Assembly (NCBI GenBank): GCA_043822705.1
Contig: JBDRBK010000115.1
Coordinates: 32,001 to 96,000, forward strand
Length of the DNA: 64,000 nucleotides
Source: Fidelibacterota bacterium
Lineage (GTDB): Bacteria > Fidelibacterota > Marinisomatia > Marinisomatales > TCS56
Direction of reading: 5' to 3'
The notes under the pieces are model-generated. The model worked only from the letters and a program-made list of their open reading frames with translations, did not search any database and was not told the DNA's origin. Positions 18,519-48,430 of this stretch are shown one piece after another (position 1 is the first letter of the stretch; each line of letters starts with the position of its first letter). A program made the translations under genes and the position numbers.

Positions 18519-18548
18519 TGTAGGGGCACAGCATGCTGTGCCCCTACA
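18519..18548. repeat. GTAG-type REP-like perfect palindrome
   Basis: TGTAGGGGCACAGCA|TGCTGTGCCCCTACA, 30-bp perfect palindrome. Confidence 0.8.
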
Positions 18549-18564
18549 GCATTATTATCATCAC

Positions 18565-18963
18565 GGGCAGCAACCCGAAGCGTTGGGGAACCATCCCGAA
18601 CCCTTCGGGAACCAACCCGGAGCTTTGGGGAACCAACCCGGAGCTTTGGGGAACCAACCCGGAGCTTTGGGGAACCGACCCGAAACGTCGGGGAACCATC
18701 CCAATCCTTTCGGGAACCATCCCAATCCTTTCGGGAACCAACCCGGAGCTTTGGGGAACCATCCCAATCCTTTCGGGAACCGACCCGAAGCGTCGGGGAA
18801 CCATCCCGAACCCTTCGGGAACCGACCCGGAGCGTCGGGGAACCATCCCAATCCTTTCGGGAACCATCCCGAAGCGTCGGGGAACCAACCCGAAGTGTTG
18901 GGGAACCAACCCAATCCTTTCGGGAACCGACCCGGAGTATCGGGGAACCAACCCAATCCTTGC
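18565..18963. repeat. Tandem array, 19 x 21 bp: GGGAACCNNCCC + 9 variable nt
   Basis: Units counted by hand in exact 21-bp register from 18565; a partial 20th unit starts at 18964. Confidence 0.95.
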
Positions 18964-19143
18964 GGGCAGCAATTCCGGGATTTGTGTAAAATGAAAATAA
19001 TGTGTTAAATTAATTACACCACCGGGGGCGAGGAATCCCGGTGAAGAAATACTTTCATATTGATTGATAGTCTGACTCCGGTCCGCCGGAGATTACCTGT
19101 AAATACGCTTGAAAGTAGTAATCTTTAGCTAAGGAGGGTAACA

Positions 19144-19458
19144 ATGGGTACACCAACTTTCGCCGAAACCATCAGTAACGGGAAGGTCATGCTCAGCGGC
19201 CTGCGGGCCCACGCCGCGGCCCTGGCCGTCCGGGGTATCGACGCCGAATTTATCGGCGGCTTTGAAACTGATATCAACGCCTGCGAGCAACTGAACAACG
19301 AACAGGAAGCCCTGAAAGCCGGGCTGAAAGCCAAGACGGCGGAACTGAACCAGCAGATGCAAAGCCTGAAAGCGCGCTACGGCGAAGCCAATCAACTGGT
19401 GAAAATCACCATCGATCATTCGCTTTGGCTGGAGTTCGGCATTACCGCCAAACGTTAG
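19144..19458 (+). CDS. Small helical/coiled-coil hypothetical protein (104 aa)
   Basis: Strong RBS AAGGAGG at 19131; heptad-like NNEQEALKAGLKAKTAELNQQMQSLKARY; C-terminal WLEFGITAKR. Confidence 0.8.
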   Translation: MGTPTFAETISNGKVMLSGLRAHAAALAVRGIDAEFIGGFETDINACEQLNNEQEALKAGLKAKTAELNQQMQSLKARYGEANQLVKITIDHSLWLEFGITAKR

Positions 19459-19626
19459 GCCGTTGGGTGCGACGTTCCCGACACCGGGCTCCCGCCGGCA
19501 GGCGTTCGGTTGACAATGATCTCTCTCATCAGGTGCCAGTTAAACCGGACGAAAATACTTGATTCCGAGCGGAATTTGGTATAGCTTCGGTTGTCGGTAA
19601 AACAAGACTTGATTACGCCCAACGGC
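19459..19626 (+). ncRNA. Candidate multibranched structured RNA (3' trailer or sRNA), family not recognised
   Basis: Nested helices found by hand, with all G-U wobbles valid on the + strand (see findings). Confidence 0.45.
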
Positions 19627-19668: not shown

Positions 19669-20457
19669 TTAACCGACCTGATAGTACTGCCGGGGGTTTT
19701 TAACAAAAGGCAGGTAAATCTGGAAAATGCGGTACTGCAGGAGACGACGGCTTTTACCGGTCAGTTTATTGGCCCAGCCTGGTTTGCGTCCGGTTACCTG
19801 GTGCTTTTCATCGAGGGTATTGATCATGGCATGGATAATAATACCATATACCAGTAGAGTTTGCCGGTCATCCTGATAATCCAGGTTTTCCAGAATGGCA
19901 ATCAGGGGGTCGAACCAGCGTCTGAAACCCGCCTCGGCTAAAAACCTGTCGGTGAATTCCGCGAATGTTATCGTATAGTATTTTTCGTTGATTTGTTTAA
20001 TCAGCGATTCACCCATGCCGCGCTGCCAGCCCCGTTTCACGATTTGATTTTTACTGCTCTCGAGCGCCCGGATGAATGCCAGCAACAGCGCCCCCCGCTT
20101 ATTCAGGGCTAAATTGGTGTAGATGCCTTCCAGTCGCATGATCTGGATGCGCGCCCAGAGTTGAACGAAGAGATAAATACTGTCCAGGTAAGTGAACCAG
20201 TCGGAGAATTCCAGTCCTTCCGGCCGGTCAGTGTAACTGAATTCATCGAAATCGGATTGGGCCAGGTAGCGAATTTTACCGACCAGTTCATCGGCGGCTT
20301 TTAAAATCGGATCAAGATTTTTATTGATCAACTGGGCGGCGGACTTCCGGTCGTTCACTTTTTGGACATAAAAATATTCGAACAGTTTTACCAGCATCCC
20401 GCCACTGAACAAGGCAATTATAATTTTCAGCCAGCTCGGCTCGGCAATACTTCCCAC
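19669..20457 (-). CDS. Hypothetical protein with N-terminal hydrophobic helix
   Basis: 262-aa ORF with protein-like composition; no recognised motif. Confidence 0.6.
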   Translation of the reverse strand: MGSIAEPSWLKIIIALFSGGMLVKLFEYFYVQKVNDRKSAAQLINKNLDPILKAADELVGKIRYLAQSDFDEFSYTDRPEGLEFSDWFTYLDSIYLFVQLWARIQIMRLEGIYTNLALNKRGALLLAFIRALESSKNQIVKRGWQRGMGESLIKQINEKYYTITFAEFTDRFLAEAGFRRWFDPLIAILENLDYQDDRQTLLVYGIIIHAMINTLDEKHQVTGRKPGWANKLTGKSRRLLQYRIFQIYLPFVKNPRQYYQVG

Positions 20458-37067: not shown

Positions 37068-37514
37068 GTGTCAACATATACGCAAATATATTATCATATC
37101 ATTTTTTCGACTAAAAACAGGGTGCCCTGCCTTAAAGAAGCGGGCCGTGATGAATTATTCAAATATATCTGGGGTATTGTTAAAAATAAGGATTGCCACC
37201 TGTATCGAATTAATGGCGTTGAGGACCACGTTCATATATTGATTAGCCTGAAACCAGCGGTTGCCCTCGCTGATTTGGTTAAAGATATTAAGGTAGCAAC
37301 CTCAATTTGGATAAAAGAACGGAATATTTTTCCACGATTCGAAGGCTGGCAGGGGGGATATGCCGCCTTTACATATGCGGACAAAGATAAAAACACCGTA
37401 ATCAATTATATAAAAAACCAGGTTGAACATCATCGGAAGAGAAGTTTCCGCGAAGAGGTCGAAGCTCTGTTAAAAGAACATGGTGTTGATGTTGATGAAA
37501 GGTTTTTGGTTTGA
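37068..37514 (+). mobile_element. tnpA: IS200/IS605-family Y1 HUH transposase (REP-associated-type TnpA), no tnpB
   Basis: YHIIFSTKNR, DHVHIL (HUH), WQGGY, YIKNQ (catalytic Tyr); 148 aa. Confidence 0.9.
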
Positions 37515-47756: not shown

Positions 47757-47972
47757 ATTATCCATTTGTATGCAATAGTGACTACTATTCTTTGTATAGA
47801 GCAATTTCAAACCACTATAGAGAAACGGTTAAAACGGTTCTATCTGACTTGATGCATTTTTCTTCCAGATAAATCCATGTACTTGGAAATTCGGTGCCAA
47901 ACTGATTGATAAAACGTGAATCGACCCACCCCGTGCCGATTACCGGGACACACCTACCAAGAGTGTTATATT

Positions 47973-48000
47973 GTAAGGGCACGATGCATCGTGCCCCTAC
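47973..48000. repeat. GTAG-type REP-like palindrome (one mismatch)
   Basis: GTAAGGGCACGATG|CATCGTGCCCCTAC; same arms as 18520-18547. Confidence 0.75.
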
Positions 48001-48034
48001 CTCCCAGGCCACATAGTGCTAACTGGAAAGGTGG

Positions 48035-48430
48035 GGAAATACGTGCATTGGCCTGCTAAAACCTGTGTATAGGCCTACTAAAATGCGTGCATGGGTCTGG
48101 TAAAGCACGCATATAGGCACGGTAAAGTGCGTGTATGGGTCTGGTAAAGCACGCATATGGGCATGGTAAAACGCGTGCACCGGCCAGGCAAAACCCGCAT
48201 ATGGAACTGGTAAAGTGCGCGTATGATCACACTAAAACGCGCAGTCAGACCAATCGGAATGCACGGTCGGACCCCTCGGTACATGCGGTCGTACCCCTCG
48301 GAATGCACGGTCAGACCCCTCGGAACGGTCGGTCAGACCCCCCGGAACGTGCGGTCAGACCCCCCGGAACGTGCGGTCAGACCCCTCGGTACGGTCGGTC
48401 AGACCCACTGGAATACGTGGTTGGGGACAG
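48035..48430. repeat. Tandem array, 18 x 22 bp, two motif blocks in one register
   Basis: 10 units of type TAAARYRCGYRYATRGGY.... (48035-48254), then 8 units of type CGGWAYGNNCGGTCAGACCCCY (48255-48430). Confidence 0.9.

Follow-up and report, generated by a model that had tools for sequence, protein, structure and literature searches.

The stretch of DNA that was analysed (64,000 nucleotides; hereafter the window) carries at 18519-19626 a compact set of repeats, folds and a small gene, in an accessory block that separates YqeC- and MocA-like genes from YqeB-, XdhC- and dihydropyrimidinase-like genes and thereby interrupts a selenium/molybdenum-hydroxylase maturation cluster. This placement, which a first-pass annotation had proposed by naming the side genes yqeC-mocA and yqeB-xdhC-hydA, was confirmed by family matches (YqeC and YqeB above the family cut-offs, the other three below). 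The perfect 30-bp palindrome (REP-like, GTAG-tagged) is indeed found at 18519-18548 and is an independent repeat outside the module. It is followed by the proposed binding array (18565-18979), in which 19 full dyad-symmetric units of 21 bp run in phase from 18571 to 18969, as many as had been counted before, with partial units at the ends and a half-site core GGGA (TRF: 18571-18954, period 21, 18.3 copies, 75% matches). On the plus strand there then come an AT-rich putative promoter (18980-19020), a leader (19020-19143), the gene of a 104-aa protein with a predicted helical hairpin (19144-19458), which was recovered together with its strong Shine-Dalgarno sequence AAGGAGG (19131-19137), and a locus-specific folded stretch (19459-19626), closed by an 11-bp inverted repeat for which an integron (attC) reading was considered. 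The promoter-like hexamers do lie at 18982 and 19006, but the pair is weak: with 7 of 12 consensus bases it may be a chance match, and a promoter scan of the window did not call it, although a promoter there stays plausible because of the TG before the -10 hexamer and the AT-rich stretch. The module reads as array, promoter, gene and terminator, in that order. The five elements originally put forward as one system are all present in the sequence, yet only the array and the gene belong together. Convergent with the module lies a 262-aa ORF (19669-20457, minus strand) with no family match over cut-off.

The 104-aa protein founds an unannotated family of 579 clusters at 50% identity (326 at an E-value of up to 1e-10). 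It has no match over cut-off in Pfam, NCBIfam or PADLOC (the latter giving 0 matches for four window proteins), a PDB sequence search returned nothing under E 0.07, and an Atlas search returned unnamed clusters only, with DUF6261 as a lead at 0.79. Weak matches to the NCBIfam family PQLLE (NF052641) exist for 100 of 124 family members (best E 2e-10), but the window protein, a single unit of 104 aa compared to about 211 aa, scores far below the cut-off (23.8 vs 80 bits) and is not a member. Homology to one half of such proteins is nevertheless supported, since an alignment of the family profile (98.2%, 102 columns) covers the first half of nine two-domain relatives, including two full PQLLE members. 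DUF6261 (Pfam PF19775) is absent both from the window protein's matches and from the 25 families listed for the 124 members, its profile link to the family being weak (HHalign 17.8%, E 0.0014). These comparisons make the family a single-domain relative of PQLLE and, weakly, of DUF6261 proteins, both of which are uncharacterised. Most of the two-domain loci, taken together with one DUF6261 locus, likewise have arrays of 21/42 bp. Among the papers listed in searches of the openly accessible literature, no description was found for DUF6261, PQLLE or array/helical-protein pairs. Family loci were named in Bacteroidota, Spirochaetota, Bacillota, Chloroflexota, Caldithrix, Deltaproteobacteria, Verrucomicrobiota and Neomarinimicrobiota, and one viral contig also encodes a member.

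The association of the array with the gene was followed across homologues. In a first set of 74 representatives at 70% identity, with a periodic segment (20-22 or 40-44 bp) searched for within 700 bp, arrays were found upstream of 57 of the 70 genes with enough sequence, compared to 3/68 downstream, 2/59 far upstream and 0/55 far downstream, and in 54 of 58 cases a period of 21 or 42 fitted best. When the set was enlarged to 245 genes with 111 representatives, an array was detected upstream of 80 of 96 core members, versus 3 of 88 downstream; 16 of the 96 have no detected upstream array, and neither has any of the 11 distant relatives. The median distance between array and gene is 103 bp, the pairing holds across phyla, and the host genome's four paralogues (one of them frameshifted) each have 21-bp-phased repeats upstream, each with a different unit. 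The association of protein and array is therefore strongly supported, whereas direct binding, i.e. the suggestion that the small protein oligomerises on an array of two helical turns per unit, is moderately supported, by the residue-3/motif covariation and the dimer model described below. In Bacteroidota homologues the promoter element TAnnTTTG (-7) occurs between array and ATG in 16 of 38 cases, 15 of them 43-56 bp before the start; within the arrays it was counted 3 times, and 6 times in a stretch of equal length ahead of them; at these loci the array is upstream of the promoter. At L062, L023 and L202 the array is downstream of the gene, the one at L202 (714-1388) being the longest seen, with 32 units of 21 bp. 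On the viral contig (L001:2805-2985) some 16 bp separate the end of the array from the start codon, and the GG core is that of the window, although the proteins are about 30% identical. The distant subfamily without detected upstream array (L229, L231, L232, L235, L236, L243-L247) is possibly domesticated or repurposed.

The units step by 21 bp, rarely by 20, and this fixed period is kept, together with a dyad frame, across unrelated unit sequences. Of 88 arrays, 44 have a dyad symmetry above that of 95% of column shuffles, and the average frame over 54 arrays consists of T at -9 (0.62), A at -3 (0.58), T at +3 (0.57) and A at +9 (0.65), enclosing an inverted core that differs from locus to locus. 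In 30 of 43 arrays, sequence 42 bp apart is more alike than sequence 21 bp apart. None of the signs of an RNA was found in the arrays: within-unit complementarity equals that of permutations (2149 vs 2158 +/- 17; 2171 vs 2183 +/- 17), G-T is about as frequent as A-C (370/355; 369/337), i.e. there is no G-U bias, and the sense strand folds better than the antisense strand in 25 of 54 arrays, so that the plus-strand folding bias of the window array (z -4.57 vs +0.74) did not generalise. A coding array was rejected as well (no codon-position contrast; 12 of 54 arrays without open frame), and matches of the array ORF to TigB and GP350 look like low-complexity artefacts. The arrays look like double-stranded DNA binding sites, and are proposed to be such. 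CRISPR and TIGR arrays also adjoin a protein gene, but consist of repeats with unique spacers and have a Cas or Nop-domain effector nearby. The units of the window array, in contrast, are degenerate copies of each other without unique spacers, and no Cas, Nop-domain or nuclease effector recurs among the neighbours of the 74 loci (a Cas1-like gene lies near two of them, as read by eye).

The letters of the core track residue 3 of the protein. In a set of 98 arrays (dereplicated at 90%, in which kinship inflates a Fisher test, and phased with a bonus for the shared T/A frame), Thr3 is accompanied by GG at +6/+7 in 14 of 17 arrays, compared to 3 of 81 otherwise. On a tree built without the N-terminal arm Thr3 changes 12 times, and when the proteins are clustered at 60% identity, GG is found in seven of the nine clusters with Thr3. 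An AU test on 32 of the 98 rows rejects the grouping of Thr3/GG into one clade (p-AU 4e-81). Among pairs less than 55% identical, a shared residue 3 lifts motif similarity from -0.075 to 0.159, which is the largest contrast among positions 2-9. Sisters switch both traits: L127 and L153 have Thr and GGGCA versus Lys and CCCCA in L121 and L136, and L070 has Thr versus Asn with GTCCA in L213, a core that is also present at the host genome's Asn3 paralogue. When classes were predicted for 53 held-out genes, of which 25 had a scoreable array and a templated residue (the other 28, with a weak array or another residue, being unscored, and the Thr template having been built without two Thr3 exceptions), 15 of 25 were right versus 6.8 expected (p 2e-4), and 8 of 17 versus 4.0 expected among those below 70% identity (p 0.02). 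The ten errors, which include four of the five Arg3 cases, make this code only partial. In a scan of all columns, residue 3 against base +7 ranks first of 624 cells, its z of 4.4 being below the family-wise threshold of 4.97; an earlier column scan had ranked column 8 above column 3. Independent pairs on well-supported branches number four, with 3.5 going the same way and 0 the opposite way (p 0.125), while Lys3 against C gives 1.2 same and 0.4 opposite.

Structure prediction (AlphaFold2) returns the monomer as a confident helical hairpin (pLDDT 95.8), with helices at 6-22, 24-28, 34-89 and 92-98, of which the third counts 56 residues (about 84 Å, compared to about 71 Å for 21 bp of DNA). The homodimer is predicted with a score of 0.73 versus 0.00 for the best control (contact agreement between runs 97% or more, pLDDT 90 or more); in a benchmark, 20 of 30 solved pairs and 1 of 23 single chains came up to this mark. 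The predicted contacts (50-68, 57-61, 47-72, 16-82) would imply an antiparallel bundle in which the two-fold axis passes close to residue 59 and the N-termini lie towards the middle. In the model of the two-domain relatives the same helix pattern is repeated twice; fold searches with both models gave generic helical bundles only (best Z 6.8 for the single-domain and 10.2 for the two-domain model), which is no proof of a new fold. No helix-turn-helix was found, either as a Pfam match or in the hairpin model, nor any other recognised DNA-binding motif in the family protein. The net charge is near neutral (-1 for the window protein, family median +2), and lysines are conserved at 58 (97%), 62 (96%) and 87 (99% Lys/Arg).

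Following these results, array and gene form a real two-part system outside the named families, the function of which is inferred: the protein is probably a dimer of a new kind that binds DNA sequence-specifically and coats the phased array ahead of its own promoter. We would expect, with the same moderate confidence in the claim as a whole, that a dimer sits on each 21-bp dyad, with its arms reading the core, its conserved lysines holding the backbone and neighbouring dimers aligned along the array. The module would then be a horizontally spread pair of phased, dyad-symmetric DNA sites and the gene of their binder. With one dimer per unit, the two N-terminal arms, near the two-fold axis of the dimer, would read the variable core, K58, K62, K84, K87 and the basic tail would hold the DNA backbone, and adjacent dimers may pack on one face of the DNA, forming a filament whose super-period would be 42 bp. 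Given the position of the array, immediately before the promoter of the gene, autoregulation of the monocistronic unit seems the most likely direct role. The same protein may also occupy matching orphan arrays in the chromosome (see below), while the different cores of paralogues in one genome would avoid cross-talk between them. Such occupation of orphan arrays is what suggests the favoured role, that of a self-maintaining accessory element which would mark or bridge chromosomal sites. Autoregulation alone does not explain the arrays downstream of the gene at the three loci named above, nor those at orphan sites between convergent genes. Genome G057 (same record as G309) offers a natural panel for orthogonality: besides several two-domain relatives it has six genes of the single-domain type, and most of these genes have a distinct array to themselves (L166, L177, L185, L191, L217, L218, L222, L224).

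It is unlikely, but the best surviving alternative, that the array is a cis site for another host factor or a DNA-shape element, with the protein doing something else and the link to residue 3 stemming from a hitchhiking block. The arm and the array are about 100 bp apart and physically linked, so that old block transfer could contribute to the covariation, which misses family-wise significance as given above; in addition, the protein has no recognised DNA-binding fold or motif, and no upstream array was detected in the distant subfamily. On the other hand, Thr3/GG loci of different lineages keep the core of the array while their leaders show little likeness (z at most 3.2, compared to 33 for a close pair), which makes hitchhiking of arm and array less likely. 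Furthermore, the paralogues of one genome differ in their core, for which a single host factor would have no need, and the pairing is seen across phyla.

Decidedly unlikely is an NTPase-free centromere and its binding protein, serving the segregation or tethering of an integrated mobile element. The model for this is StbA/stbS of plasmid R388, in which a small dimer is encoded beside helically phased repeats in its own promoter region, without NTPase partner, the sites being 9-bp direct repeats on an 11-bp cycle (10.1101/2022.04.29.490116). The layout is shared, both with StbA/stbS and with ParR/TubR-type systems (a gene beside phased repeats upstream), and cooperative coating with autoregulation would match as well. 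The present units are instead inverted half-sites (dyads) with a 21-bp period, and the protein is a predicted helical hairpin in which no helix-turn-helix was recognised. The distribution is patchy, as would suit a mobile element: the family is present in 0 of 7 other genomes of the host's own family, and in 1/301, 9/251, 4/301, 2/151 and 2/101 genomes of the sampled groups (each count including the centre genome), compared to 14 of 31 genomes in one genus, where a single genome has as many as 9 copies. Matches on two plasmid types and on the viral contig point the same way, but they amount to 5 of 72,556 plasmid records and 0 phage records, and at the two plasmid loci inspected the gene lies among housekeeping or unrelated genes. 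Family loci are in fact mostly chromosomal, multi-copy and surrounded by housekeeping genes, with no plasmid genes alongside; no cluster of neighbour genes recurs in more than 3 of 74 loci, and no replication, integrase, conjugation or NTPase gene recurs among these neighbours.

Another reading, in which non-autonomous mobile elements such as BrickBuilt or MITEPgRS of Porphyromonas carry the array as a minisatellite and the gene is a passenger, is highly improbable, even if it fits the occurrence of orphan arrays at unrelated intergenic sites. The host genome has nine further 21-bp arrays without a family gene, one of which (contig C25) matches the window array with 79.6% identity along 269 bp; the array of a Chloroflexota homologue is 73% identical to the window array. 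In Capnocytophaga-group genomes three of the four orphan sites inspected are clear arrays between convergent genes. The BrickBuilt and MITE464/PgRS elements of Porphyromonas gingivalis are described as tandem repeats with units of 23 or 41 nt, located between genes at several sites, with IS5-type terminal inverted repeats and no linked gene (PMC4596501). The likeness lies in tandem repeats at multiple intergenic sites in Bacteroidota, but shared termini of the kind that this description gives were not seen among the arrays compared here. The window array and its C25 copy have no flanks in common, and a search for empty sites gave no clean case. A mobile minisatellite would, moreover, leave the period and dyad frame kept among unrelated units, the fixed side and distance to the gene, and the covariation with the protein unaccounted for. 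The nine orphan arrays resemble the motifs of the resident paralogues (mean 0.70 versus 0.36 for random family arrays; 0 of 5000 draws as high), as the binding of own and matching arrays by the protein would have it.

A REP-like palindrome abuts the window array, which also fits mobile elements and recalls REP/RAYT systems. In these REPtrons a gene stands beside its cognate repeat, orphan copies are dispersed in the genome and paralogues are repeat-specific (PMC3733652). Gene, cognate repeat and orphans are all present here too, and the 30-bp palindrome is GTAG-tagged, but the protein has no transposase or nuclease match, the arrays are tandem double-stranded dyads and no tyrosine transposase gene is adjacent (Y1_Tnp has five matches in the genome, the nearest being the IS200/IS605-family transposase gene at window 37068-37514, IS200-type and 17.6 kb off). 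The palindrome itself is incidental: it precedes the array at 1 of 53 loci, namely that of the window, it is absent upstream of the three other paralogues, and similar GTAG palindromes occur elsewhere in the host genome.

The first-pass annotation had combined all elements into one protein/RNA/repeat system with a structured RNA partner or antitoxin. The folds on which this was built do beat shuffles in the window (leader: z -2.62, 1 of 200 shuffles as good; downstream 168 nt: z -3.20, 0 of 200), but their conservation did not hold up, with BLASTN of the genome and of 191 loci giving self-matches only for the ~125-nt leader and the 168-nt fold, and Rfam giving no match at gathering score. Leaders of homologues have a median z of -0.7 (18 of 72 at -2 or lower). 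Regions downstream of homologues are more structured than controls (49/71 vs 13/39 at z of -2 or lower); as read by eye, this signal mostly consists of short terminator-type hairpins of unrelated sequence rather than of a 168-nt fold, so the conserved RNA structure expected near homologues was not found. With the palindrome confined to one locus, both folds matching nothing else, and arrays that show neither covariation nor strand bias, the five-part system is hardly credible. A type I or III toxin-antitoxin pair with an RNA antitoxin found no support either (no covariation, G-U or strand bias in the arrays; no conserved flanking RNA).

New findings are the family of single-domain proteins, the negative outcome of tests for a role as RNA or as coding sequence, and the link from residue to base, which makes the binding idea sharply and cheaply testable. 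A first testable function is thereby offered for hundreds of unannotated small proteins and their two-domain relatives, and the common intergenic 21/42-bp 'minisatellites' would be explained as protein-binding arrays. If the arm sets specificity, the result would be a 104-residue DNA-recognition module with an unfamiliar binding mode and natural orthogonal variants, of use in synthetic regulation and for studying how repeats and their binders co-diversify. More tentatively, and with doubt prevailing, the large, uncharacterised superfamily (the 104-aa family, PQLLE and probably DUF6261) could be a new class of DNA-binding helical bundles, in which the arm would set the bases by a simple re-usable code and the length of the bundle the 21/42-bp spacing, with paralogues making up orthogonal pairs of protein and array. 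The arrays of such pairs would serve as bridging or roadblock sites and spread in the chromosome with no enzyme of their own.

Some further repeats of the host genome were observed. About 630-500 bp upstream of paralogue L176 (G000 C199) lies a stretch that resembles an integron attC site and may be a candidate for one. A 22-bp array (C65:20046-20310) is found 38 bp upstream of a gene for a 198-aa protein (L327:1112-1708), for which neither an NCBIfam or PADLOC match nor any relation to the 104-aa family could be detected. A further eight arrays of 22 bp, as well as the window's second one, have no such gene alongside, and the 22-bp arrays are possibly a parallel system. At window 47972-48413 and at G000 C136:665-1270, two unrelated sites, a REP-like palindrome, a two-part 22-bp array and a tail of roughly 90 bp recur nearly intact, as if the set had moved as one unit.
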